A DNA stretch of 64,000 nt from Nitrososphaerales archaeon (lineage in GTDB: Archaea > Thermoproteota > Nitrososphaeria > Nitrososphaerales > UBA213): the NCBI GenBank assembly GCA_965197925.1, contig CBDAOC010000019.1, positions 160,001 through 224,000 of the forward strand, written 5' to 3'. Positions within the stretch are counted from its first letter, which is position 1; every line of letters begins with the position of its first letter. A program made the translations under genes and the position numbers. A model generated the notes under the pieces. It saw nothing but the letters and a program-made list of their open reading frames with translations, searched no databases and had not been told where the DNA came from. Below, one piece after another: positions 1,228 to 32,274 of this stretch.

Positions 1228-1338
1228 ATTGCTTCAGTCTTCACCCTAACTATTCATCTTTAACCAAAGGGGCGGACACATTCCTGGGGCTGCAAATAAT
1301 TGCTTGTCTTCACCCTAACCATTCAGCTTTAGCCCAAA
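1228..1338. repeat. Imperfect ~40-bp direct repeat pair separated by ~30 bp
   Basis: ATTGCTTCAGTCTTCACCCTAACTATTCATCTTTAACCAAA versus ATTGCTT--GTCTTCACCCTAACCATTCAGCTTTAGCCCAAA; core copies start at 1237 and 1306. Confidence 0.7.
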
Positions 1339-13256: not shown

Positions 13257-13414
13257 ATATAACTATTCCACGACATCGCATTGACCCCAGATTTAACATC
13301 AAAACAAAACCCGTAAGATCCTGATTACTTAACAGAACCAAAACTAAAACAGCCCCGAAGTTTCCAATGGAAAAACTAATCTAGTTTGTTGCGCCTTTGT
13401 TGGTACGGATATCA

Positions 13415-13836
13415 ATGAGTAAATCCGAAATTAATACCTTGGATCTCATACCCGTAAGGATGCTGACACAGTATGTCTACTGTAAACGTTTGGCATACAT
13501 GGAGTGGGTACAGGGCGAATTTGCATACAATGCAGACGTAGTAGACGGCAAGTACCGGCATAGAAATGTGAACAAACCATCTGGAAGAAGAAAACTTGAG
13601 CAGGGCAGCACGGATGAAAAAATTCACGCAAGATCAATCACTTTATCAGATACAGAACTTGGACTTGTATCCAAGACGGATTTGTTGGAACTGGAAGGAA
13701 GCATTGCAACCCCAGTGGAGTATAAACGTGGAAGCACTCCTGAAAATCAAGATAGGGTATATGAGGATCATATCATACAGGTATGTGCACAAGGACTGCT
13801 ACTTCGTGCAAATGGGTACACGTGTACAAAAGGCAA
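13415..13836 (+). pseudogene. cas4: Cas4 domain (N-terminus of a type I-G Cas4/Cas1-type protein), truncated by deletion
   Basis: IPVRMLTQYVYCKRLAYMEWVQGEF...DLLE..PVEYKRG...QVCAQGLLLRANGY; C-terminal Cys triad and any Cas1 part missing. Confidence 0.85.
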
Positions 13837-15828
13837 TATGTCATAATAGGAACGCAAGACATGCTCATCTCAGGCGCATTGAATCGCGCATATGGGAACA
13901 ATCCAAATGTATGGCCAATCATCTTTGGTTTACTCAACAATGACAGCATGTGGGTTATGGATGAGGTTCAGATTATGGAAAATGCTCTGCCTACGTCGAT
14001 ACAGCTAGATAAATTTCGAGATCAGTTTGAAACATATGGGCCACATAAAACAGTATGGATGTCTGCCACAATAAATCCTGATTGGCTAGAGACTGTTGAC
14101 TCTCCAAAGGGCAGTCTGAAGATACACAATCTTGAAGAAGCAGACAGCAATGATGAACTCGAAACACGTAACAAGGCGAATAAAACCCTTCACAAAGCGC
14201 CAATCACGTTAAAAAAGGAATACAGTAAAAAAGACGTAGAAAAGATGCTAGAATTACACAAAAAGGGTACTACAACTGCAATAATGGTAAACACAGTAAA
14301 AAGGGCGCAAGATCTGTATAGAATTTTATCAGGACAAGCCGACTGCAAGTTGATTCATTCAAGATTTAGGACTGCAGAACGGAATGAATTAAACAAATGG
14401 ATAAGCAATTTAAAAGAGAATGAAGATAAAATTATTGTTTCAACACAAGTACTTGAAGCAGGTGTGGATGTCTCTGTTAGAATGATGATTACGGAGGTTG
14501 CGCCTTGGGCTAATTTGGTTCAAAGATTTGGAAGGTGTAATAGACGTGGAAAACTGCCAGCTGGAGATGTGTATTGGATAGACATTGACAAAAATTATCC
14601 GCCATACAGCGAGGATGATCTCACACACGCAAAAAACAAACTAGACAAGCTGGAAGACAAGTCCATATCGCCTAGCGAATTGCGAGACATTGAAGAACAA
14701 AAATTCTTCGATGCCGTACTGCGCCGCCGAGACATGATTAATTTGTTTGACACTGCGCCTGACCTGTCTGGCAATCACACTGACGTATCTAGGTTCGTAC
14801 GCAATATGGAACAGCAGCTAGATGTGAGTGTGTTCTGGCGCGATGGATGTAATTGTAAATATGACAAAAAGGACAGATTCAAACCCGAAAGGGATGAGAT
14901 ATGCAGCGTACCAATATCCGATCTTAGAGAATTTCTCAAAAAGAAGAGCGTATATGGATATGTTTGGGATTATGCGGATAGAACATGGGAAGAAGTTTAT
15001 CATACGGATCTATTGCCCGGACAAACTGTCATGTTGGATAGTGGGATTGGCGGATACTCCAAGACCTATGGCTGGGATGGCAAAAGCAACGACCGCGTAG
15101 ATGTTGTAGGAAAACCACAACAGGTGCCAGAGTCACATGATAGTGATCATACATCACAATTACGGATACCGGTAACGTTAGGAGATCATACCAAACATGT
15201 TCTGTGTGAAATAGATCTTTTTTTGAAAAACATTTCATATTTGGATGATGGTGTCAAAAATGCCCTTCGCACAGCAGCAAGATATCATGATGTTGGAAAG
15301 GCTCACAGCGTGTTTCAGGAAACGATGAAAAAAGGCATCTGCGATGAAAGAAAAAATGAAGGCAAGGTTTGGGCAAAGACTCAAAAGATGTCCAGACACA
15401 GTATATCGGGTTTCAGGCATGAGGTTGTAAGTGCATTGGCATATCTCAAACAAAAAGATAAGCTCGATGAGGAATTAAGAAACCTAGTTGCATATCTCAT
15501 AATGTCGCATCACGGAAAGGTCAGGCTTTCATTAAGAAATTTTTTCAAGAAGGAACGCACAAAGAAAGATAAGGAATATCTATTTGGCATAAAAACAGAC
15601 GGAGACATGCTGCCAAAATTCTCCAGTGACGATGTATCCATTGAAGAGACGCGTATTGATATGTCGTTGGCTAGCATCGGAAGAGATGAATCAGGAAATT
15701 CTTCATGGACAGAACGTGCAATCGCGTTGCGTGACAAGTATCATCCGTTTCGTCTTGCATATCTGGAGATGTTGATCAGGAGAGCAGATTGGCTTGCAAG
15801 TGCAAAAGAAAACGAGGAGAAATGTTGA
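13830..15828 (+). pseudogene. cas3: Type I-G Cas3 helicase-nuclease with C-terminal HD domain, lacking N-terminus (no Walker A)
   Basis: IGTQDML, DEVQ, MSAT, VNTVKRAQ, HSRFR, TQVLEAGVD, QRFGRCNR, then H...HDVGK...FRHE...SHHGK...RRADW at the C-terminus. Confidence 0.9.
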
Positions 15829-17951
15829 TGAACCAACACCTACTAGAAGGATGCAGGACAACTCCGGTATCCAACTATCTCAAGGCCCTGGGACTGTTCA
15901 GGATTGTATCAAAAAAAGATCCCGGAAGTACGGCCTGCTGGAAGAACGATAATTTTGTTCTTGAAACTGAGATGAGCAAGGAGGAGATCATGGAATTTTT
16001 GTTAAATAAATACAGCCCAACTCCAATAATTAGTCCATGGAGTTTTAATAAATTTGAAAAAACTCGTGATAAACTCAAGGATTTAATTGAATTAGAACGG
16101 TTCGAACCATATAAAAAAACAGTTGATTGTGTTCGTGACGTATTTAATAAGTTACATGGCATTCATAAGATAGAAAAAATTTCTAAAAACGAAATAAACG
16201 AAAAAATAAAACTGTCGCTCTTGAAATTATGTCGCAACTATCTTCCGGATGAGGCTGTACCATGGCTTGATGCTACTTTTGTAATTGAAGCAACAAGCAG
16301 ACGTAGTTTTGCTCCGATACTGGGTACAGGCGCAAATGACGGGAATTTTGACATGGCGGAGAATTTTGTTAAATGTATCCACAAGATATTTGGATCTGGA
16401 GGAGAAAACAATGCTAAATCCAAGGAATGGTTAGAATCTGCATTATTTGGTAATGTCGTTGAATTAGATGAAAGATCAACAACAGGCCATGATCCTGATG
16501 GATCAGGGGGTCCAAATTCAGGAATGGGTTTTGAAGGCAAGTCTTTGTCTAATCCCTGGGGTTATGTTCTGATGATTGAGGGCACCGCATTATTTGCAGG
16601 CAGTTTATCAAAACAGCTGTCTGCCAACAATACGGGCAAAGCCGTGTTTCCATTTACTGCTGGTACTTCAAGCGCAGGATACGCTACGGCATCCAACGAA
16701 GACAGAGATGGGATAAAAGACTCATCATCTAGGGGCGAAATTTGGTTGCCAATATGGGAAAACCTCACAACATATAAAGAAATAAAATATGTTTTTAATG
16801 AGGGGAGAATCCAACTTGGAAAAAAACACGCGAAGACAGGAACCGAGTTTGCACGTGCCATCATATCTCTGGGTACGGAACGCGGAATATCAAAATTTCA
16901 GCGGTTCTGTATTTTGAAAAGAAAAGGCAAGTGCTACCTTTTCACAAACGCCGGCAAAATAACCGTGGCAGACGAACCCGTTGCCAGTCTGTTGGACGAA
17001 TTAGACAAATGGTATAACCCAATCATCAAACAAAGCAAAAAGAATGCATCCGAGAAACTTGTACGCTTGGTAAAAAGTCTTGATGAATCTATAATGAAAT
17101 TTTGTACCTATAGAAAAAAACAGAATCTGCTACAATTATTAATAATGATAGGAAGGCTTGAGAGATACATATCTGGAGATGCTGACTTTGAACCATTAGA
17201 AAAACTGTCAGACAGATGGTTGGTTGAATGTTATGATGGATCCGCAGAATTCAGATTAGCCGCATCTATCGCGTCGATAAAACATGCGAATGGCGTAGGC
17301 AGCATACGGGAAAATTTAGAAAATGTAATACAAAAAAATGACGGTTGGAAACATAAAAAAAATTCAGTATCATTTGTATGGAAAGAAGACGATAACTTGC
17401 TGAAAAATATGAGTCGTGTCTTGCAAAGACGCAGTCTGGACGGAAAGATCAAGTCACATGACATCATTCCAATCAAAGGAATCATACCTGCTAAAATTGA
17501 TGACATCACTAAATTTCTCAATGGTGATTTGGATACAAGAAAAATAAGCGATCTCATACTCCCATTATCGATAGTAGACGTGACACCTGAAACAGAATAT
17601 TCTTGGAAAAATAACCTCCAAGAGGACATTAGTTTGCCATTACCGGAGGCATATATGATTATGAAGTTAATTCATCCTTCAGATGAAAAAGAAAACATCC
17701 CATATGATATGTCTGTGCTAAATTTGCTGTTTGCGGGACTAATAGATAATGCATATGCAAAAACAGCATACATGCTACATGCACATGGATTATCGCCTCT
17801 TAGATATTCTAAAAAAACAGGCAATGCCAAGAGCACGTCTCTTTCTGACGTTGTGAAGGAATATTTAGTAGCCTCATTACTTTTTCCAATTTCAGGTAAG
17901 GACAGAGAATTAATGTTAAAATCAGTAATAGTAGATCACACTTGGGCCTAA
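15828..17951 (+). CDS. cas8u1: Type I-G CRISPR large subunit Cas8g/Cas8u1 (Csx17)
   Basis: LEGC...YLKALGLFR, YSPTPIISPW, PILGTGANDGNFD, NPWGYVLMIEG, RGEIWLPIW, EFRLAASIAS; TGATG coupling to cas3. Confidence 0.88.
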   Translation: MNQHLLEGCRTTPVSNYLKALGLFRIVSKKDPGSTACWKNDNFVLETEMSKEEIMEFLLNKYSPTPIISPWSFNKFEKTRDKLKDLIELERFEPYKKTVDCVRDVFNKLHGIHKIEKISKNEINEKIKLSLLKLCRNYLPDEAVPWLDATFVIEATSRRSFAPILGTGANDGNFDMAENFVKCIHKIFGSGGENNAKSKEWLESALFGNVVELDERSTTGHDPDGSGGPNSGMGFEGKSLSNPWGYVLMIEGTALFAGSLSKQLSANNTGKAVFPFTAGTSSAGYATASNEDRDGIKDSSSRGEIWLPIWENLTTYKEIKYVFNEGRIQLGKKHAKTGTEFARAIISLGTERGISKFQRFCILKRKGKCYLFTNAGKITVADEPVASLLDELDKWYNPIIKQSKKNASEKLVRLVKSLDESIMKFCTYRKKQNLLQLLIMIGRLERYISGDADFEPLEKLSDRWLVECYDGSAEFRLAASIASIKHANGVGSIRENLENVIQKNDGWKHKKNSVSFVWKEDDNLLKNMSRVLQRRSLDGKIKSHDIIPIKGIIPAKIDDITKFLNGDLDTRKISDLILPLSIVDVTPETEYSWKNNLQEDISLPLPEAYMIMKLIHPSDEKENIPYDMSVLNLLFAGLIDNAYAKTAYMLHAHGLSPLRYSKKTGNAKSTSLSDVVKEYLVASLLFPISGKDRELMLKSVIVDHTWA

Positions 17952-19608: not shown

Positions 19609-20424
19609 TTATTTCGTCATTATTCCGCCATCGACAATAAGAACCGCCAGTAACCCAGCTAGATGATTCTGAAGTGAGGTACAGTATAGCCTGCGCAACA
19701 TCTTCTGGCTCACCTATTCTTCCTAGGGGTTGCAATGAATTGAGTATCTGCTTTGCTCCATCATCCTCTAAGTATGGTTGGAGGAAGGGACCCCTAACTG
19801 TACCGGGACACACACAATTAGCCCTCACATTGTACTGTCCATATTCCAATGCTATACTTTTTGTAAACATTATAACTCCTGCTTTGGAGGCGTTGTATAC
19901 CGCCAAAGGAATCTTCTCTACAGCCTTCATACCTGCTACCGAAGCAATGTTAACAATAACTCCATTCTTTTGTTCAAGCATTGTTGGAAGCACCGCTCTA
20001 GTCATCCTAATAGTTCCTATCATGTTGGTATCAACCAGTTCGTGGATTACCTTATCTGACATTGTATGAAAGGGTTCGGGATCATTAATCACAGCCGCGT
20101 TATTTACCAAAATATCTATTCTATTGAAGTGCCGAAGTGTCTGTTCAACAATATTCTGTACCTCATTTTCATCTGATATATCACCTTGTACGGCTACAGC
20201 CTTCTTACCTTTTTTTTCAATTCGGAAACTATTCTGTTTAGATTTTTTAAATTCCTAGCTACAAGAGCCACACTAGCTCCTTCATTGGCAAAAAGCTTTG
20301 CCGTGGCCTATTTTACCTATCAAGGGCTATCGGTGACATAAGGAATTCATTGGCAAAAAGCTTTGCCGTGGCCTATACTACCGCTCGCCCCTGTGACTAT
20401 GGCAATTTGATGACTTAACGACAC
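19609..20424 (-). pseudogene. Short-chain dehydrogenase/reductase (FabG-like), disrupted
   Basis: AIVTGASGSIG, LVNNAA, YNASKAG, RANCVCPG, PLGRIGEPEDVA; several frameshifts plus an insertion near the 5-prime end. Confidence 0.85.
20281..20376. repeat. 31-bp exact direct repeat flanking a 34-bp unrelated insert
   Basis: TTCATTGGCAAAAAGCTTTGCCGTGGCCTAT at 20281-20311 and 20346-20376; insert TTTACCTATCAAGGGCTATCGGTGACATAAGGAA. Confidence 0.9.
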
Positions 20425-21444: not shown

Positions 21445-21504
21445 CACTGCTCATTATGTTTAAATATCTCCGTAAGAAAGACATCTGTTAGATTAAGGAT
21501 GATA

Positions 21505-23227
21505 ATGAATAAACTAGTAATACCCAGTATATTGGCAGCAACAGTATTGATAGCAGGAATATTTGCGTTCATGCCAGTAGAGAGGGCAAGCACGGTGCAC
21601 ACTGGCCTAGAAGCCAAGATGGAGGCAGTTGAAAATGCAATCAAGGGTGAAATTAATAAGAACAGATTTTTCCTGGAGACCGTTAACCTGAGTGATCTTG
21701 ACGATGGGACTACGGTAGTAGTCGCTGATACTACTCCCCACGGAATGGGCCAGGTTCACATAGCCGCAACCCTTCCGGTCGCAGACGTTGGTGCCGATGG
21801 ATGCACTGATGAGGAGCCATTGGTGGATGTAAAGGCGGGTCAGGCTCCAAATCTTGATATAGTGCTGACGGGTGCCCATAACACGGGAATTGCCGGAAGA
21901 GCGGAATATCAATACGAGTGATAATGCGTTTCCCACTGGCACCGATATGTGCGTATTCCATAGGACCATAACTGTCGCAAATGTCGGTGCAGACCTGCTG
22001 ACCGACATAGTAGTAGAAGGAAAGGTGGGAGCACTACCGGCAGACGCCTTCATTACCGTGTCAGGCACGGGCTTGATGGATGACGCCATGGGGCTATTGG
22101 GTGAAATATCAATTGGATTACTTACTCCACGAACAGGAGACATTGCTTCTTTTGGCGAAGAAAATTTGGCAAGCATTAGGCTGGGAGTAGTTGATTTTAA
22201 TAAACATCTCGAAGGGATGGGAGCTCCATGGAATCTCAGAATTGTTGAGAAGGACACTGCAACTGACCCCGACACTGCATTAGAAAAACTAAAGGAGCTT
22301 GATGCTGAAGGAATTGAAATTGTAATTGGTCCTGCAACTAGTGCAAATGTTGAAAGAATCAAAGGCTATGCAGATTCTAATAACATCCTACTTGTTAGCA
22401 CCGGTTCTACTTCACCTAAACTAGCTTATCCAGGTGATAACGTGTTCCGCTTGGTTCCGGATGACAATAAACAGGGAACTGCACTTGCAGAGCTAATACA
22501 ATCTGAAGGAATTGACGTATTGGTTCCTGTGTGGAGGAATGACCTGTGGGGTAATGGATTAAAAGCGGTCGTGGCTGATTCATTTGTGGAAAAAGGTGGC
22601 CAAGTAGATGATGGAATTCGTTACGATCCTGAATCTCTGGATACTTCTACAGTATCTACAGTAACTTCTCAGTTAGCCGGTATAGTACAAGGATATGTTG
22701 ATGATGCTAATGTTGGTGCAGACAATGTCGCTGTTTTATTTGTAGGATTTGACGAGATTTTAGAATTCCTAAAGGAAGCTTCAGACCACGATGTCTTAGA
22801 TGATGTAAGATGGTTTGGATCAGATGCCAATACAAAACAACAACTTCTAATAGATGATTCTACGGCATTAGATTTTTCAACCAGAGTGCAATTTATATCG
22901 CTCCAATTCACGGCATCTAAAAACGAAATCTATGATAGGGTGAAGGCTGACCTCGGGAGTGATCCTAGCACATTTGCTTACGCCTCATACGATGCCGTAT
23001 GGGTGATTGGACTTACAATGCTTGATACCCAAAGCACCGATGCCCTTACCATAAAGGGAAAGCTTCCAGAAATTGCAGGATCCTATACTGGTGCAATAGG
23101 ATCGACAAGACTGAATGCGGCAGGAGATTTGGCACAAGCTGATTATGATATATGGGGAATCAGAGGCGGAGAATGGAAACTATTGGGAAAATACACCCAA
23201 AGCACTGACAGTGTGGTACTAACATAG
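21505..23227 (+). pseudogene. Leader-family copy B: leader + beta domain + branched-chain amino acid-type ABC substrate-binding domain, one +1 frameshift near 21903
   Basis: ORFs 21499-21921 and 21872-23227 join to align with intact copy D; IGLLTPRTGD, IVIGPATS, FRLVPDD, YDAVW. Confidence 0.85.
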
Positions 23228-23274
23228 TTCCTAGATACGCTTGGCTCAGGGCGTACCAGTAATTCTTTTTTTAT

Positions 23275-23963
23275 GCTATACAGTGCGGGGCAAGGCCCGT
23301 GATGTTTTTTTGATGAAAGCTGATGTCGCCTGAATATATGGTGGACAAGCCAAGGACGCTTTTGGGCAGGGTGCTCTTGCCGTTGCCGCTGGGTCCTGTT
23401 ATTACGGTAAGTCCCTTTTTGCCTTGCCTTAAAATCCATGCCAGACAATACGTGGCTGTTTGCATAACCGGCATTTAGCGCGCCTGCACGAATTGTTGCT
23501 TGTGACATCTACCTCCCGGACATGATTCTACCACTTTTTTATCATCTCCTCCGAGCTATCCCCCTGCAATCATTCGTCCTGCATTCATCGCAAATACATG
23601 ATCTGTATATCACGGTGCAATATCCAGTACAGTATGTGCTCTATAATTAAAAATGTGATTTTTTGCTCCCTGCAAATTTTTGATATCTTCTCAAATATGT
23701 CGTGCGCCGGCGCCGGGTTTACACCTGCAATTGGCTCATCCATTGGGATCATTTTGGCACCCGGCATCATTGCCCTGCCTAGATCCGGCAGTTTTTGCCG
23801 GCCTCCGCCTGAGGTTTTGACTGGAAATACCCTTCTTCCCTATCAGACTGACTATCTCCATTACCTCCAATGCCCCGTCATGATCTTTTTTCCACTTTGA
23901 TTTTATTGGCGTAAAAATAAACGGCTCGCCGGCATTTGTACTTGGTATTAAAAAATTCTCCAT
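23275..23963 (-). pseudogene. Decayed branched-chain amino acid ABC ATPases (LivG-like then LivF-like)
   Basis: MDEPIAGVNPAPAHDIF...TFLIIEH; LNAGYANSHVLSG...ITGPSGNGKSTL; multiple frameshifts; GC-richer. Confidence 0.75.
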
Positions 23964-24109
23964 GGTATCTTATTTTGTTTTACTTGATAATGGTATCTTC
24001 CAATGTACATGCAAAGTGGCGAAGTTATTGAGGAAGATCTTGACTACGAAGAGATTGTAGACGCAATGCCTCAGGCCTTGACAGGCGAAAGGCATAAGGA
24101 TCCTTCCGT

Positions 24110-24330
24110 CTATCGTTTCTTGATTTTAATAACTGGATTAACAGTTACTAGATAAATTGGTTCTCCTCCAATCACAACCAATCTTGATTTTCTGACTTGA
24201 GCTAGGATGGTCTTTAGGCTAGGCACCATAGAATTGCTTAAATCATACACACCAAAGTTTTCTCGTAAAACATCAAACTCTACATCTTCATCACTAATAG
24301 TATTCCTCGTTTGTAATGTTAGATTGGCTA
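24110..24330 (-). pseudogene. Degenerate archaeal hypothetical protein
   Basis: EDVEFDVLRENFGVYDLSN...LKTILAQVRKS...GEPIYLV looks protein-like; start unclear. Confidence 0.35.
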
Positions 24331-24624
24331 TTACTTGCTCTAGGATTAAGTGTATTGTATGGATACCTAGCACGACGAAAGCACTCGATGAAATATTTGG
24401 ACTATCCAGAGTTATTACGGTAGATGCTTCCCTCAGCTTGGAATAGTTCAATCATATGGAAAGAAATCATTTTAATTCAGGGTTAATCATGCGTGTTTTC
24501 ATATGGGGTTTCATGAGCCTTGGTCAGCATACGTCATAGGTGCTGCAATAGCCATGGTTGCTGCATATATAGGAGTAACTTATTACCAAAAGTCCCTATT
24601 AACAAGCAGTTGAAAAGTTCCGAA

Positions 24625-24830
24625 GATTTACAAGTGTATGCCAAGTCCGTACCTGATCAGGTATTGAAGAATTATGCAGGCTGGACTGCCGATTCAGGTG
24701 CAGCCTTGAGATATATCCATCTGTCCGGCGGGATGTAACGCCTGCCATACTAGCTCATCATGGTTCGGGTGAGGTGGCAGAGCAGAAACGGATGAAGAAA
24801 TCCAAAAATTAACCAAGAGACAAACGAGGC
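24625..24830 (+). pseudogene. C-terminal fragment of an archaeal tyrosine integrase
   Basis: DQVLKNYAGWTADSGAALRYIHLSGG/DVTPAILAHHG resembles the GWT..S.M...YVHLSG.D catalytic-Tyr motif. Confidence 0.7.
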
Positions 24831-24835
24831 TAGAA

Positions 24836-25192
24836 AAAGCACATAGAAGATAGGATACTTAAGCAAAAACAGGTAAACCAACGAAAGAGGATCTGGGAAG
24901 GAAGGAAGGAAGACTAGGCTTTAGCTACGGTGCGGAGTAAAAACAATATATTTGTAATGAGATCATTTGGCATGTTGTTACCAATGACCAGTAATATATT
25001 AGAAAATAATGTTCCGCTAGGATTTATAGCTGCTAGCTGGAAGACCTGGTTTCGTTTGATAAAGGAATTTAATGGTTTCTCTCTAATTAGCGGACGATTA
25101 TCCTCCTTGCTGTGTCGGTAGGGTTCTCTGATACTCCCGGGCAGATGATCGGTCTGATCAAGCAGGGTTCAAGCCAAGTTGTAAAAAATAGT
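24836..25192 (-). repeat. Dispersed non-coding 3-prime-flank element, longest copy
   Basis: 24836-25007 is near-identical rc of 2346-2510; 25150-25190 matches 31420-31455. Confidence 0.85.
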
Positions 25193-25753
25193 TTATCCGT
25201 TTGGTGCTGCAATATTTTCAAACGTGCAGCTTCCACCTTTTGACACCAGTACCTGAGCCGTTACGGCCACCTCTTCGTCATTGCCATCATCAGCATCTGC
25301 TTCAGCAGCAGTTAGTACTACGTCATCGTCTGCTACTGCAATAAGAGCCCTTCCAGGGCTTCCAGCCTCTCCAACTAATTCCTTGAACCCATTAGTTTCC
25401 AGATCAACTGGCATACCAATATCTACGCCTCCAATTGAGACGGCGAGGCTGGTACTGGTACCAGCATCTCCCGTCAATCCTGCAAAAATGGATATTACTG
25501 CAAATTCTTCCGTACAATCTAACGTGAACTTGTCTCCACTGTCCAGGTCACTATCAGTTTCCTGTTCTACTTCCAATACCGTAATTTTATTTTCTAAATC
25601 TTTTATATTATTTTGTACCTTCGTCAACTCAGTTGTTAACGTATTTTGTATACCAGTGTGCACCGTGCTTGCCTTCTCAACCGGCATCAAGGCAAATATT
25701 CCTGCTATCAATACTGTTGCTGCCAATATGCTTGGTATTGTTAGTTTGTTCAT
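25193..25753 (-). CDS. Leader-family secreted/surface protein, copy C (paralogue of copy A)
   Basis: 186 aa; identical to copy A for 109 aa, then clustered substitutions and indels. Confidence 0.85.
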   Translation of the reverse strand: MNKLTIPSILAATVLIAGIFALMPVEKASTVHTGIQNTLTTELTKVQNNIKDLENKITVLEVEQETDSDLDSGDKFTLDCTEEFAVISIFAGLTGDAGTSTSLAVSIGGVDIGMPVDLETNGFKELVGEAGSPGRALIAVADDDVVLTAAEADADDGNDEEVAVTAQVLVSKGGSCTFENIAAPNG

Positions 25754-25885
25754 TATTCTAGTATTCTTGCAACTTTATTTAAGCATGATAGACAATTGGT
25801 CTAGAATCCCCTGCACGAAATTGTCAGAACTTTCTAGAATAATGTAGAACATTGTGGAATCAGGTTTAATCGCTAGTGTTGCTGG
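25754..25885 (-). promoter_or_regulatory. Conserved upstream region of leader family (copy C)
   Basis: TTCTAGAAAG...TTCTAGACCAATTG...CTTAAATA...AAGAAT shared with 28204-28322 and 32275-32400. Confidence 0.7.
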
Positions 25886-26079
25886 CGCGTGGTGCGTAAT
25901 GCATAATATGGGCGGGCAATTACACCGGCAACAGCATTTCTTGATATCGCTGGAGAAACTGTAGCCATTTGCAACTATTAATTCACCGGGAAAGTTACAA
26001 TACCATACGCCTTCAAGTGATTTTCTGATAGGAGTTCAAGAATTGAAACAAAAAGGGGGAGTTCTATCATTATCTGCAA

Positions 26080-26250
26080 CAGGTGGCCACGATAGTGGTG
26101 GCTGAGGCTGATCTATCTCAACAACCTTGTCATCCCATCCTATCATTTGCCCTACGCCTATGTCCTTGGCTTAGCCGGTGGTTCTATGAACTTCCGCTGC
26201 TCACCTGTTAATTCATTGAATTTCATGCAATATTAGGCATGGTGCCGGCA
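26080..26250 (-). mobile_element. N-terminal fragment of an IS5 (IS427-like) transposase
   Basis: MKFNELTGEQRKFIEPPAKPRT followed by degenerate sequence. Confidence 0.45.
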
Positions 26251-26415
26251 AATGGACCGAGCGATCGTGGAAGTTTCACCAGTCGCTTAGTTTTGGGATG
26301 ACTTGTGGTTGAACAAGATGTAAGGCATGCCCTAAAGTTGGGAGGCTCTTTGCTGGCAAGGGCGTCTTTAAAGGAAAGCCGCAAGAATTACTGGTACACC
26401 CTGAGCCAAGCGTAT

Positions 26416-28203
26416 CTAGGAACCAGTTAGTACCACACTGTCATTGCTTTGGGTGTATTTTCCCAGCAAGACCCACTCACCGTTACGAATTCCCCATATA
26501 TCATAATCAGCTTGACCCCGATCCCCCGCATCATTTAGTATTATCCCCTCCATTCCACCAGTGGCACCGTCAAAATTTTCTGCAATCCTAGGCAGTATTC
26601 TTTTTATCATATCAACATCGGTGGACTGGGTTTCAAGCATTGCCAGGCCCACAATCCATGGTGCATCATAGGAGGGATGCACATACGTACTGGGTATTCC
26701 ATCAACCGCCTCAGATACATGATCATTCACACGATGGTATCTCTCGCTATTAGATACTGCCACCAGCGTTGTAGTAAACCGTACATTTGTGGCAAAAATA
26801 TCCTCTAATCCTATTGGATCATCAACTAGCCCACGCTCCTTAGCGTTAGCCGCAGGGCCAAACCATCTTACATCATCTAACACATCGTGCCCCGAAGCCG
26901 ACTTCATGAATTCTACAATTTCACCAAAGCCCAAGAATAGAACAGCTACCTTTTCCGGACCACGGTCATCAACGTGCCCCTGTACTTCCTGTGCCAGCAA
27001 TGAAGTTTTTGCCGAAAACCCGGGGGACTCCGGGTCGTAAGGAATTCCTTCGCCAACCTGGCCTACACGTCCTTCAAACGAATTGATTGTAGACTCACTT
27101 AGGCCCCTGCCCCATACATCGTTCCTGTACACAGGGATCATTACTTCTATTCCCTCATGATCTAACAGCTTGGCAAGTGCAGGGCCTTGGTTGTTATCAT
27201 CTGGTATCAGACGGTATACACTGTCACCTGCTATGGCAAGTGAGGGAGCAGTCGAGCAGCAGCTGACAAGCAGCATGTTGTTTGAATCAGCATAATCCTT
27301 GACCTCCCTGACATTGGCACTGGTCTCAGGGCCAATTATTATGTTGATTCCCTTGGCATTTAATACCCTTATCTTTTCCAGTGTAATAGCAGGACTTGTT
27401 TCAGAGTCTTCTGAAACCAGTTCAATGCTCCATGGCTCCCCAAGTCCGGCCAAGTGATCGTTAAAGTCGGCAACACCTAGTTCCGTGGCTATCCGATTTT
27501 CTTTACCAAGATCGGATAAATCTCCTGTCAGTGGAAATATGCCGCCAATTTTTATCCTGCCGGACAGTCCCATGCCATCATCCAGCATGCCCGTACCTGA
27601 CACGGTAATGAAGGCGTCTGCCGGTAGTGCTCCTACATCGCCTACTACTACTATGTCGGTCAGCTTCGTTACGGTTTCTAAATCATCCTCATCTGGAGTA
27701 CCTGCATTTGATTCTCTGATCAATTCATTTACTATTGCAAGATCTATAGTCGTATGGAATACACACATATCGTCAGTAGAGCCAAATGGTGTACCGATGT
27801 TCACTCTTCCGTTAATCCCCGTGTTTTCCTCAGCCCCCAGCACTTTTATGAGAGCTTCGCCAGCCTGACCTGCAAGTACATCCACCAATGGCTCCTCATC
27901 AGTACATCCATCGGCACCAGTGTCTGCAACCGGAAGGGTTGAGGCTATGTGAACCTGGCCCATTCCGTGGGGAGTAGAATCAGCGACGACTATTGTACTA
28001 CCATCGGTAACGCCGCCCAGGTTAACGGTCTCTAGGAAAAATCTGTTCTTGCGAATTTCGCCTTTAACTGCATCTTCAACCGCATCTATCCTAGCTTCTA
28101 GGCCAGTGTGCACCGTGCTTGCCCTCTCTACTGGCATGAACGCAAACATTCCTGCTATCAATACTGTCGCTGCTAATATGCTTGGTATTACTAGTTTGTT
28201 CAT
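26416..28203 (-). CDS. Leader-family copy D: leader + beta domain + branched-chain amino acid-type ABC substrate-binding domain (intact)
   Basis: MNKLVIPSILAATVLIAGMFAFMPVERASTVHTG; IKIGGIFPLTGDLS, IIIGPETS, STAPSLAIAGDSVYRLIPDD, SYDAPW. Confidence 0.9.
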   Translation of the reverse strand: MNKLVIPSILAATVLIAGMFAFMPVERASTVHTGLEARIDAVEDAVKGEIRKNRFFLETVNLGGVTDGSTIVVADSTPHGMGQVHIASTLPVADTGADGCTDEEPLVDVLAGQAGEALIKVLGAEENTGINGRVNIGTPFGSTDDMCVFHTTIDLAIVNELIRESNAGTPDEDDLETVTKLTDIVVVGDVGALPADAFITVSGTGMLDDGMGLSGRIKIGGIFPLTGDLSDLGKENRIATELGVADFNDHLAGLGEPWSIELVSEDSETSPAITLEKIRVLNAKGINIIIGPETSANVREVKDYADSNNMLLVSCCSTAPSLAIAGDSVYRLIPDDNNQGPALAKLLDHEGIEVMIPVYRNDVWGRGLSESTINSFEGRVGQVGEGIPYDPESPGFSAKTSLLAQEVQGHVDDRGPEKVAVLFLGFGEIVEFMKSASGHDVLDDVRWFGPAANAKERGLVDDPIGLEDIFATNVRFTTTLVAVSNSERYHRVNDHVSEAVDGIPSTYVHPSYDAPWIVGLAMLETQSTDVDMIKRILPRIAENFDGATGGMEGIILNDAGDRGQADYDIWGIRNGEWVLLGKYTQSNDSVVLTGS

Positions 28204-28322
28204 TAATTGATCAGTCATTCTTACAGGCGTATTTAAACATAATCAGCAATTGATCTAGAATTACCTGTATGAAATTATTAGAGCTTTCTAGAATTATGTG
28301 AAATATCATGGAATTAAATTAA

Positions 28323-28395
28323 GAGCCTATCCGAAAATCCTGTTCCATAGATTGTACGCTGCTCTTATGCCAGCAATAATTATATCGGAATGATG
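28323..28395 (-). mobile_element. Right-end fragment of IS1031-like element
   Basis: GAGCCTATCCGAAAATCC TIR; rc encodes ...YNLWNRIFG*. Confidence 0.7.
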
Positions 28396-28574
28396 GAAAA
28401 TAAATATAGACATCTCTTTCTGGGTGTGATTTTATCAATTTTGTAGAAAGCGCACGCTATAGTAATTCCAAAATCATGTACCTTAAAAGAATGTGATGCA
28501 ATGAGCCGAGCTGCAGAAATTTATCCCTTAAGACATGTAATCCAAAAAGAGTTATTTCATCTTAAAGAAGATAA

Positions 28575-28810
28575 ATTCAATGGAGAAATTATCAGAAAAT
28601 ATTTTCAAGCTAAATAGCTGAGGGTTTGAGCCTTGCCAGAATAGAGAAATGCATAAACATGATGAAACAAATACCTAGACTCTTTCGCAAGCCGTTCACC
28701 AATGCTACAAAGGAAGACATTGTAGAAATTGTTGGCAAGATAGAGCAGAAGAACTGTACTGATTGGATTAAATAGGATTATAAAATTATTCTGAAACATT
28801 TCTACCAATA
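28575..28810 (+). pseudogene. N-terminal (SAM-like) fragment of an archaeal tyrosine integrase
   Basis: AEGLSLARIEKCINMMKQIPRLFRKPFTNATKEDIVEIVGKIEQKNCTDWIK*DYKIILKHFYQ. Confidence 0.7.
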
Positions 28811-28831
28811 ACAAGGGAGGATTCGAGAATA

Positions 28832-29125
28832 TTGTCTTCGTTAATGAAGCATCTTCCTGGAAAGTATAGAACCGCTAAGCCAGACAAGATTTTACTGGGT
28901 GAAATAGTGAGTTGTATTATTAGTAATAGAAGTAGGGTTAGTGATGCAGATGAAAAAACAATAGTTTATCTGATTGACAAATATGGGGCATTCTTTCTAG
29001 ATTTGGAACTTCTCATAGAGGAGATATCGAAATACCTTGATTTTTTTGGAAAACATTTTATCACTAGGGAGGAGCTGGACAAGCCCGAATACTCCTTTGC
29101 ACAAACATTAAAGAAGACCTTATAA
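28832..29125 (+). CDS. Hypothetical protein or gene fragment
   Basis: 97-aa ORF with plausible composition; no motif recognised. Confidence 0.3.
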   Translation: MSSLMKHLPGKYRTAKPDKILLGEIVSCIISNRSRVSDADEKTIVYLIDKYGAFFLDLELLIEEISKYLDFFGKHFITREELDKPEYSFAQTLKKTL

Positions 29126-29131
29126 TCAAAA

Positions 29132-29600
29132 TTAAGATGTATTACCTGAAGTGCCAACAAATACTGTTTGGATGATTTTTTCAAGTGTAGACGCAACAAA
29201 ATCTGGATGTTGCTTGACGTAACCAACGAATTTTCTCATTTTACTCTGCCGTTTCGGGTCCTGAGATATTTCCTTAACTTCGGGATCATCAGTTGATAAA
29301 GTCTTCAAAGCTTGGTCGGCTATACTTAATACAACATCAATTCCATAATTCGTAATTTTTATGTGAATAGGATGGGCCTTACCTAGTGCGGCTACACCTT
29401 CTATGAGACCACCGTTCTTCAAATAGATTACCTCAGCGTAAGCAAAATCTGAATTAACTTCTTGTAATTCAGACTCCTTTATTATTGAATCTGTCTCATG
29501 ATAATTTGCTGGCTGACCACCATAATATTTCTGATAAAGTGTATGTAAGATCCTGAATCTAATTTCTTGATGAATCCATCTTTCTAATGATGAAATATTG
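29132..29600 (-). CDS. Hypothetical protein, possibly winged-helix, longer than the ORF track shows
   Basis: Frame stays open upstream of 29422: ISSLERWIHQEIRFRILHTLYQKYY...AYAEVIYLKNGGLIEG...IKITNYGID; no ATG/GTG/TTG at the 5-prime end. Confidence 0.5.
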
Positions 29601-29951
29601 ATAATTATAAACTTTTAGAAGGAACTTTAGGATATTCACGCCAGCACCAACTCGCGAATAAGCAATATAGCCGCAATTTAACCTTACAACATATCTACTT
29701 ACAACTTCCACACTAATCTATAGTTCTATAGAAATGAATTGACATTGAGTGAATTGGTTCGAGATATCATTTAATATTGTAACAAGGTGTTGTATGACGT
29801 CCTGTCCTTTACATTTTGATTGTTATATCCCATTCACTTTAACTTCTGGGCTAGCTTCTAGAAGATCTAAACTATTATCTTCTTTTCTCAATTCATAATG
29901 TTTGAACAACGAGGAATATTTACAAATTGTTTAATTATATGAGAATTATAT

Positions 29952-30000
29952 GAGGCTTGGGCATAATTTAGTTCGAAACGATCAGATCAGGTATTCTATG
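29952..30000 (+). mobile_element. Isolated left end of GAGGCTTGG-ended IS
   Basis: GAGGCTTGGGCATAATTTAGTTCGAAACGATCAGATCAGG. Confidence 0.6.
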
Positions 30001-30079
30001 ATAGTATGGTGTGAGTAAATATAAGCATTGCAAGCACTATGAGCTTCTATCCATAATCAAGGAGAAGGATGAACATTAT

Positions 30080-30334
30080 TTAGCTTTCCAATAGAGCTAA
30101 TAGATCCTTATGTTTACGTAGAATACTTTTACCTCTTGCAGTCAACAAATTGTAGATTCTACGCTTCCTCTTAACACGGTTAACAAAGCCCCTCTTAACA
30201 CAAAACCGTAATACATCATGTATTCCAAAGTCATCAAAGTCCTCTAGCAACTCACGCGTATATTTTTCTTGTTGCAACCTATCCAATACCTTGCCTACTT
30301 GATTCAAGCGTTCATACTTGTCCGCACTTATCAT
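30080..30334 (-). CDS. Small winged helix-turn-helix protein
   Basis: VLRFCVKRGFV...RIYNLLTARGKSIL wing motif. Confidence 0.6.
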   Translation of the reverse strand: MISADKYERLNQVGKVLDRLQQEKYTRELLEDFDDFGIHDVLRFCVKRGFVNRVKRKRRIYNLLTARGKSILRKHKDLLALLES

Positions 30335-30577
30335 ATATAGTTATGTTATAACCTAACCTTTATAGCTTCCCGCATATACAGTAGATCGACAAGTGTAATT
30401 AGGATGTTCTGTTAAGTTTCAGAAATGTGTTATCAAGCTATCTATTCTCTATCTTAATCTGCTTCAATATTTCCTTAGCTTGGCTGGGCTGAAAACTCCT
30501 TCCTTGACCAATTCTTTACTACAACATATACTTCTTCGTTCTTGGCACCATCCATTTTTGCCAGATTCATTACATTC

Positions 30578-30757
30578 AGTTTGATATGCCCTGCCTAGTA
30601 ATTTCCTTCATAACAAGACCAGCTAACAGTCCTATCAAAGCACCTAATGCTAAATTTTTTACCCATAAATATTCTTGGATCTTCTTCAACTGATCACGCA
30701 CTTGTTTCAATTTATCATATTCTGTCTTCGGGACTCGTAAATTAACATATGGAATAT
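30578..30757 (-). pseudogene. Small RHH-like/membrane protein cut at its 5-prime end by an IS
   Basis: PYVNLRVPKTEYDKLKQVRDQL...ALGALIGLLAGLVMKE; abuts IS end at 30760. Confidence 0.35.
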
Positions 30758-30759
30758 TA

Positions 30760-31286
30760 GAGCCTATCCTAAAATTCTAGCTGATAGTTAACGATTGGTA
30801 GAAATGATATCATTTAGAATGCAAGAATATTAGTTCATACTGTCAGGTTTAGTTTTCTTACTAATGATATAATTAGTATTGTAGATAGTAGATACTAGAA
30901 ACAGTTGCATTAACGTGTTTATGACACTACCAATATATCGCTCTATGCTATTAGGCACTGCTATTAGGCAGTCAGCAAATTCTGCTAGCACCTGATAATT
31001 TTCCTCCTCGGATTTTTCGACACCTTCCACTGGCATCCGGTTCTTAAAACATGCAGTATTCCATCCCAGCACTTCTAAATGGCACAGCCGCCCTCCAACT
31101 GTTCTTGCCGGTTTCCCTAGTGGCAACACTAGCTTGAACTCTTTCCATAGATCGTCTGGTGTATGCCGTATGGCCGGCATGATCATCTTCTTCCTAGATT
31201 TTCTCACAAATTTAGCTAGAGATAACGGTTCTAGAACTTTTTCGGTATAAGCAATTAGGCTATGATGTTAATTTTCGGACAGGCTC
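30760..31286 (-). mobile_element. Internally deleted IS1031-like element with both TIRs, flanked by TA
   Basis: TA-GAGCCTATCCTAAAATT...AATTTTCGGACAGGCTC-TA; MPAIRHTPDDLWKEFKLVLP N-terminus, then unrelated internal sequence. Confidence 0.8.
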
Positions 31287-31287
31287 T

Positions 31288-31455
31288 AGGATGCTTGGAA
31301 AAAGCAGGTAAACCAATAAAGGAATATTGGGGAAGATCATTTAGCATATTGTTACCAATGATCAGTAACATATTAGGAAATGTGTCTAGTGGCCCTCTAG
31401 TGATATTCAGTAGATGGGCGGCCTGATCAAGCAGAGTTCAAACCAAGTTGCATAA
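31288..31455 (-). repeat. Dispersed non-coding 3-prime-flank element downstream of copy E
   Basis: TGTTACCAATGATCAGTAACA core and CTGATCAAGCAGAGTTCAAACCAAGTTG shared with the copy C flank. Confidence 0.75.
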
Positions 31456-31599
31456 ATAAAAAAAGGGTATCCTGCCTAAGGATAATCCTAGTAAATACCA
31501 CCGGGGTCTACTGACGGACAAAACCACCGTATACTGCCGGGGTTTACATACCCTACTAACGAGCAGTCTGCAGTTATTGGCGTTTGCATGGTAACCATT

Positions 31600-31735
31600 A
31601 CTACGAGATGCCGTGGAGCTCCCATCTCCTCGAGATGTTTATTAAAATCAACTACTCCTACTTGGAGCTCTCCCAATTTTCTTCGCCATAAAAAGTCTCC
31701 TGTTAGTGGAGTAACTAATCCAATTGTTGTTTCAC
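31600..31735 (-). pseudogene. Stub of an ABC substrate-binding domain formerly fused to copy E
   Basis: GETTIGLVTPLTGD...GVVDFNKHLEEMGAP aligns at DNA level with 22100-22235 of copy B. Confidence 0.75.
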
Positions 31736-32274
31736 CCAGTTGTTGTTTCTCTTAGCGTACAAGTTCCACCGCTTGACGCTTGAACGGCAAGTAATATGAC
31801 TGCTTTTTCGTCATCGTCATCATTTGTTTCACTAGCGGCTAGTATTACGTCATCGGTGGCCGGCGCTACAATATTCTCTGGATATATTACTCCAGTAGAG
31901 TTTGGAGCATAACTTATTACTTTATTTGGAGAATTAAATACAATATCCTCATCCTCTTCATTAATTCTGTTCTCTCCAACTAAGACATGGAGGGAGTTCT
32001 CATTTAGAGTTCCCTTCATACTAACAATGACTTTAGTTACTACAAAGCCTGTAGTACAGTCTATCACGTACCTGTCTCCGTCGTCCTGATCCTCATCAGT
32101 GTGTTCTAATACACTCAATGAGATAATTTTACTTTCTAATTCTTCTTGTAAAGTGTCTATCTTAGCTTCTAGACCTGTGTGCACCGTGCTTGCCCTCTCT
32201 ACCGGCATCAAGGCGAATATCCCTGCTATCAATAGCGTTGCTGCCAATATGCCTGGTATTGCCAGTTTGTTCAT
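31732..32274 (-). CDS. Leader-family copy E (leader + coiled coil + A/C-type head, divergent)
   Basis: MNKLAIPGILAATLLIAGIFALMPVERASTVHTG; DGDRYVIDC...GGTCT parallels SGDKFTLDC...GGSCT of A/C. Confidence 0.85.
   Translation of the reverse strand: MNKLAIPGILAATLLIAGIFALMPVERASTVHTGLEAKIDTLQEELESKIISLSVLEHTDEDQDDGDRYVIDCTTGFVVTKVIVSMKGTLNENSLHVLVGENRINEEDEDIVFNSPNKVISYAPNSTGVIYPENIVAPATDDVILAASETNDDDDEKAVILLAVQASSGGTCTLRETTTG

Follow-up and report, generated by a model that had tools for sequence, protein, structure and literature searches.

The window analysed here is a stretch of 64,000 nt from a Nitrososphaerales archaeon assembly of 20 contigs (contig C19, positions 160,001–224,000; the other contigs are named likewise). 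It carries a decayed short-chain dehydrogenase (SDR) gene, the 5′ part of which contains a repeat–insert–repeat unit, as well as the remnant of a type I-G CRISPR–Cas locus and an older repeat–insert–repeat scar (Table 1). Paralogous secreted proteins with one common signal peptide, some of them fused to periplasmic binding domains, are encoded at 21499–32274 and 1755–2511, and this family includes near-identical inverted copies. The initial annotation, made from the letters alone, described an exact 31-bp duplication of SDR coding DNA around a 34-bp insert, and this is borne out: the two 31-mers are identical, with 0 nt of extension on either side and 34 nt between them.

The SDR gene has two other lesions: one nucleotide is missing from an A-run and two are missing close to the 3′ end. 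In the intact paralogue (C20:~662,850–663,640) the duplicated stretch is present once and is 5 bp longer. The additional 5 bp, which are missing from both 31-mers, are present in the paralogue and in contigs of all four public runs examined; without this damage, the duplication would measure 36 bp. At its start the insert has some of the missing 5 bp, making the window unit a mosaic.

Table 1 Features of the window and repeat–insert–repeat scars of the genome (bare positions are window coordinates; sizes are repeat + insert in bp)
Feature	Position	Strand	Size	Remarks
Older scar, in 289-aa ORF	1228..1333	+	37/35+34	Diverged repeats; insert = C19:317289-317322
Cas4 half of type I-G Cas4g/Cas1g fusion	13397..13846	+		Profile positions 1-132 of 546; Cas1 half gone
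Type I-G cas3g, N-terminal part missing	13783..15828	+		Profile match from 123 of 854
Type I-G cas8g1/csx17, full length	15789..17951	+		
Decayed SDR gene	19609..20424	-		Pfam adh_short; intact paralogue on C20
First copy of duplicated SDR coding DNA	20281..20311	+	31+34 (unit)	31 bp; 36 bp before 5-bp loss
Insert	20312..20345	+		Assembled length 34 bp, original length likely 37 bp; 20319-20346 = C1:51316-51343
Second copy of duplicated SDR DNA	20346..20376	+		Without the 5-bp loss in run X5
Scar	C17:50384		36+37	Exact donor C13:68501; also at C20:514583, 515586, 533472
Scar	C20:730231		37+36 or 36+37	Exact donor C19:469639
Scar	C15:78685		36+37	85% donor
Scar	C20:935899		36+36	88% donor
Scar	C17:116185		31+39	86% donor; 3 bp shorter than paralogous site
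Scar	C19:147098		26+38	No donor

Donor and alleles of the window unit

A protospacer for the insert had been called for, and one was found in the same genome as an exact match of 28 nt, for which the expected number of chance occurrences is approximately 5e-9. The donor lies inside a C1 gene of 492 aa, whose M6 metalloprotease-like domain scores below the family cut-off. The first 4 nt of the insert are again identical to the donor, at precisely the position expected for the start of a 37-nt piece, and together with the restored 5 bp this match gives a unit of 36+37 with a period of 73, a reading that was set down before the reads at the donor were examined. A variant donor allele was considered as the source of the odd end of the insert and was rejected, given that the donor is invariant in 4/4 runs. 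The 27-nt core of the insert has no match in metagenome contigs. A mini-array of 31-bp repeats is located 2 kb from the donor (C1:49193–49290).

Raw data were available as contigs of four public runs from three studies. All four have the empty, intact single-copy allele, including the 5 bp, and four of eight same-family genomes match both flanks of the unit almost gap-free, which answers the proposed search for empty alleles in the affirmative. Run X5 has an additional contig of 59 nt, at a depth of 5 compared with 16–20 for the donor, in which 29 nt of undeleted SDR target are followed by 30 nt of donor (C1:51316–51345) at the junction seen in the window. This junction is clean. The window differs from it at three diagnostic positions, namely the first letter of the contig, which agrees with the undeleted target, and the last two, which agree with the donor and not with the window. 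The filled allele thus exists outside this assembly, as a minority allele that is canonical at the three readable positions. The proposed check in raw data therefore yielded one target–donor junction, that is, one of two junctions in one of four runs (X5 may be the source sample of the assembly), but the filled allele is spanned by no contig in the four runs.

The missing spanning contig and the three differing letters are what speaks for an assembly or library artefact. Against this, the exact junction occurs in an independent short-word assembly, another scar is present in four separate IS copies and one scar has aged repeats, and we consider an artefact very improbable; the 31+34 distortion might be due to one, but the insertion is not accounted for in this way. 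The window unit is real and recent. Its 31+34 form is probably a distorted or derived copy of an original 36-bp duplication with a 37-nt insert, a geometry suggested by the three diagnostic letters in run X5 and by the paralogue, and the change would be either a later secondary mutation or a consensus error. The earlier reading of a repeat-sized duplication around a spacer-like insert is supported, but the event itself probably had a geometry other than 31+34.

Scars of similar size across the genome

The whole genome was scanned for such units. In one scan, 329 raw pairs were reduced to 42 by a low-complexity filter and 24 of these were isolated, with a period of 64–73 in 10 rows (seven events). 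In another, 22 of 129 candidates were kept, consisting of eight array rows, 11 scar rows (eight events) and three unassigned rows without donor (C9:2796, C14:61996 and C19:266191). The genome thus has eight isolated scars, namely the window unit and seven others. The others are scattered over four contigs, and the nearness of the window unit to the I-G genes therefore means little.

The repeats are perfect in seven of the eight scars. An exact donor in the same genome was found for four and a donor of 85–88% identity for three, leaving one without a donor. Four events have a period of 72–73 and a fifth has 71; the departures from canonical size are the window copy and the 31+39 and 26+38 scars. 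A duplication of 36 bp is seen in the window unit (as restored) and in three or four other scars, to be compared with 36 bp for type I-G repeats and 37 bp for the arrays of the genome itself. Microhomology at the junctions is 0–3 nt, which, like the mosaic nature of the window unit with part of its deleted 5 bp at the insert start, would suit templated insertion during error-prone break repair, either by microhomology-mediated end joining or by template switching, in which a fragment from a distant site would have been copied in between the duplicated ends. We consider this improbable, given that four of eight events fall at 72–73 and a fifth at 71, which is the period of CRISPR arrays, and that the X5 junction is clean; break repair is not known to use a 36–37-bp ruler.

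The scar at C17:50384 occurs in four IS copies that are approximately 94–96% alike, and 86 empty copies span its site; five of the six copy pairs have only the ~1.1-kb element in common. The site of another scar is spanned by 95 empty copies, and no empty allele of the older scar in the window was found in the genome. In the IS copies at C17:50384, C20:514583, C20:515586 and C20:533472 the scar is letter-identical and the copies otherwise differ by approximately 5%, a hint that not only transposition but also gene conversion has spread it.

Read in frame, the inserts of the C20:935899 and C17:116185 scars encode peptides that we take, from their translations, to be cdc6-like and cbiD-like, with mostly silent differences from the corresponding host genes. 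The former adds 24 in-frame residues at the start of a 217-aa ORF. Because the repeats are perfect and the differences from the host genes mostly silent, the donors of these two inserts would have come from a related organism. The cdc6-like insert and the insert without a donor each gave 0 exact matches in viral contigs, and the cbiD-like insert, at up to three mismatches, had no match among 400 further genomes from the same order.

Candidate integrases and choice of target

A complete type I-G set (cas3g, cas8g, csb1, csb2, cas4g/1g, cas2 and a 36-bp array) is absent, and what remains is the truncated cas3g, cas8g1 and the Cas4 half. Using the proteins of a relative, tblastn detected no Cas1g, Cas2g, Csb1 or Csb2 in the assembly, which also contains no I-G repeat or repeat remnants. 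The remnant at 13397–17951 is rearranged, with the Cas4 half abutting the truncated cas3g, unlike the gene order in three relatives (loci L028–L030). All three csx17 homologues found (51–53% identity, thaumarchaeal) adjoin arrays with 36-bp repeats and a period of mostly 72–75, and the restored duplication has this cognate repeat length, making type I-G plausible by length. The nearby I-G module had been named as the actor. Length, the 36-bp cognate repeats and the TTG at the donor fit this proposal, but with no cas1g or cas2g, only the Cas4 half and no I-G repeats in the assembly, the remnant cannot be shown to have acted. A type I-G Cas4g/Cas1g–Cas2 complex is nevertheless the leading candidate, and we give it about an even chance of being the enzyme.

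The assembly yielded no intact integrase that would have a ruler of 36 or 37 bp; as one of its arrays runs off a contig end, such genes may be unassembled, or they may have been present in the past. The only Cas2 of the genome is fused to a frameshifted I-B Cas1. At this locus (L001:1090–2388; C20:38917–40219), cas1 contains a tandem duplication of 15 nt and, close to its 3′ end, a frameshift, and continues in frame into cas2. The resulting fusion ORF has 432 aa and adjoins an intact cas4, with no array nearby. Relatives of the I-B Cas1 have 30-bp repeats with a period of 66–67 in four of ten loci scanned, and the other six showed no array; these 30-bp repeats do not fit the scars, and the I-B Cas1 was rejected as the ruler.

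A possible, if less likely, source of the enzyme within the same mechanism is the adaptation module of the 37-bp-repeat arrays of the genome, which occur on C1, C18 and C19 with a period of 70–73. The C1 array is cut by the contig end on what, judging by its ATTGAAAC end, would be the leader side, and the assembly may thus lack its cas genes. A repeat of 37 bp is compatible with two scars, and an ATN motif fits four of six donors. Conversely, the perfect repeats of three clean scars stop at 36 bp, the restored window unit has at most 36 bp, a matching Cas1 was not found (a search with the Cas1 of a family relative gave four weak hits) and the repeat is absent from the eight family genomes searched. 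The regions C18:158000–170000 and C19:2000–13000 share both a gene run and a three-repeat array, and are either a segmental duplication or a strain haplotype.

Some other Cas1 as the integrase would be a slim prospect. C1 encodes a solo Cas1 that is intact and 398 aa long, the genome is rich in IS elements and it has one reverse transcriptase ORF, all of which could be taken to indicate a duplication made by a casposase, an IS transposase or a reverse transcriptase. IS target duplications are usually <15 bp, and the inserts come from the interior of genes rather than from the ends of elements. The reverse transcriptase domain is in a 1042-aa frame on a 4.7-kb contig (L055; C5:3–3128), which we take to be a LINE-like eukaryotic element and probably a contamination of the bin. 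For a Nitrosopumilus family 1 casposase, the available text of PMC8464041 gives a duplication of 13 bp, and a casposon insertion was rejected on the grounds that the 13–14-bp duplication and terminal inverted repeats expected of it are not seen in the window unit. We regard these enzymes as very improbable sources. In genome G005 (L048:2289–6299), casposase-like Cas1 genes and their neighbours carry repeated basic HSEETRRKISE-like peptides, which resemble NUMOD3 DNA-binding motifs.

The target itself had been described as mimicking a repeat, which the data do not support: compared in register with the I-G repeats, the window unit has a similarity at chance level (p 0.62–0.67). Among 24 uncorrected tests of scar targets against repeats the best p values were 0.011 and 0.067; no scar is significantly like any repeat, and repeat mimicry was rejected. 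The hairpin reported in the duplicated unit is real (−5.4 kcal/mol, a value reached by 1 in 400 random genome windows) but is not a targeting feature, given that one of eight scars has it and 0 of the 7 others have a comparable one. Target choice looks ruler-driven rather than sequence-driven. TTN is found beside four of the six scorable donors (nominal p 0.016, post hoc), including the TTG that adjoins the donor of the window insert if the shared junction base is assigned to the spacer. The two scars left out of this count are the one lacking a donor and one with an unseen orthologous donor. ATN fits equally well (four of six), and the PAM therefore cannot discriminate between the candidates.

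Probable off-target integration and its known counterparts

Judged by its geometry, the window unit is likely an off-target Cas1–Cas2 spacer integration outside any array. What was observed is that the target is duplicated, that the insert has a donor, that an empty allele exists, that independent raw data contain a junction and that the genome has seven further scars of comparable size; the integrase and the steps of nicking and filling are inferred by analogy with normal adaptation. A Cas1–Cas2 complex loaded with a chromosomal fragment of ~37 nt from the protease gene of the cell would have cut into both strands of the non-array SDR site, at positions separated by ~36 bp, and joined them to the prespacer, and gap filling would have duplicated the target around it. 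Later, 5 bp would have been lost from both copies and the end of the insert garbled, by secondary mutation or consensus error. A ruler that works in the absence of a proper leader may be at play, given how weak the sequence preference is and how decayed the arrays are. In the loci examined, most interference genes seem to be gone, and under such a loss self-derived pieces could persist.

Rather than a working array, what resulted is probably a dead scar, given that the repeat is unlike any CRISPR repeat in the genome. The initial annotation had proposed a nascent neo-array, which is at odds with this dissimilarity and with the lack of a third repeat copy (best identity 0.45). The unit has an empty allele, a duplication of repeat length (36 bp restored, 31 bp assembled) and a spacer-sized insert with a protospacer; the assembly has no cognate intact Cas1–Cas2 and the target does not resemble a repeat. 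Hence, we class the unit as a variant of known off-target integration and not as a proven member.

It has been proposed that CRISPR adaptation carries off-target integration as a cost and that new arrays can arise from it, and in the literature examined it was seen mainly in overexpressing E. coli and in vitro. In the present genome the events are natural, and among them are cases with empty alleles and exact donors, one allele that is a minority in raw data, one scar spread by an IS and an in-frame peptide insertion. Such scars make the rate, ruler length, PAM use and fitness cost of integration measurable directly from reads, and two inserts resemble the orthologues of a related organism, so that scars may log DNA transfer between species. 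We tentatively suggest, as a possibility that we hold to be doubtful, that in this archaeal population a CRISPR integrase serves as a mutagen guided by a ruler and indifferent to sequence, which writes 36–37-nt pieces of the chromosomes of the cell and of related organisms (the cdc6- and cbiD-orthologue pieces) into ordinary genes and IS elements. This would be so recent that alleles are still segregating although an intact cognate integrase is missing from the assembly, the enzyme having perhaps acted in trans or been lost shortly afterwards. If this were true, scars would be a readable record of the entry of DNA from other species and a source of in-frame peptide insertions. A literature search, with most subscription journals outside its coverage, found no report of natural genome-wide scars in archaea.

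Nivala, Shipman and Church reportedly described non-canonical (off-target) spacer integration and neo-CRISPR loci for E. coli's type I-E system in 2018. The E. coli events, as relayed in the accessible portions of 10.1101/148544, PMC7054753 and PMC6698737, and the units seen here are alike in that spacer-sized DNA is placed outside an array and a repeat–spacer–repeat is made from ordinary chromosomal DNA. In contrast to E. coli, we see a natural archaeal population without overexpression, duplications of 36–37 bp, no evidence of units acting as arrays, donors that are genes of the cell itself or orthologues from related organisms, and alleles that segregate and ride in IS copies. The accessible part of the cited review on off-target integration describes natural cases as circumstantial and limited to two species. 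For Pyrococcus furiosus Cas1–Cas2, the available text of PMC6698737 describes off-target sites in vitro that have features in common with the repeat; an archaeal integrase at non-CRISPR sites is the likeness, whereas the scars here lack significant repeat resemblance. Nitrosopumilus family 1 casposons, with a fixed target and terminal inverted repeats besides their 13-bp duplication (PMC8464041, as far as available), are alike in Cas1-type staggered integration with target duplication and differ in duplication size, target and terminal inverted repeats. In normal arrays of Haloferax, self-derived spacers and spacers from mating partners are known (PMC7521656, in the accessible text). For the type I-G (I-U) Cas4/1–Cas2 of Geobacter, the available text of PMC6547450 gives mostly 36-bp spacers, TTN in 50% of unique spacers and about 70% plasmid-derived acquisition. 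Our case differs in that Cas1g, Cas2g and the array are missing and the donors are chromosomal, and is alike in the ~36-bp spacers, in the TTN beside four of six donors and in the 36-bp repeats of thaumarchaeal type I-G systems.
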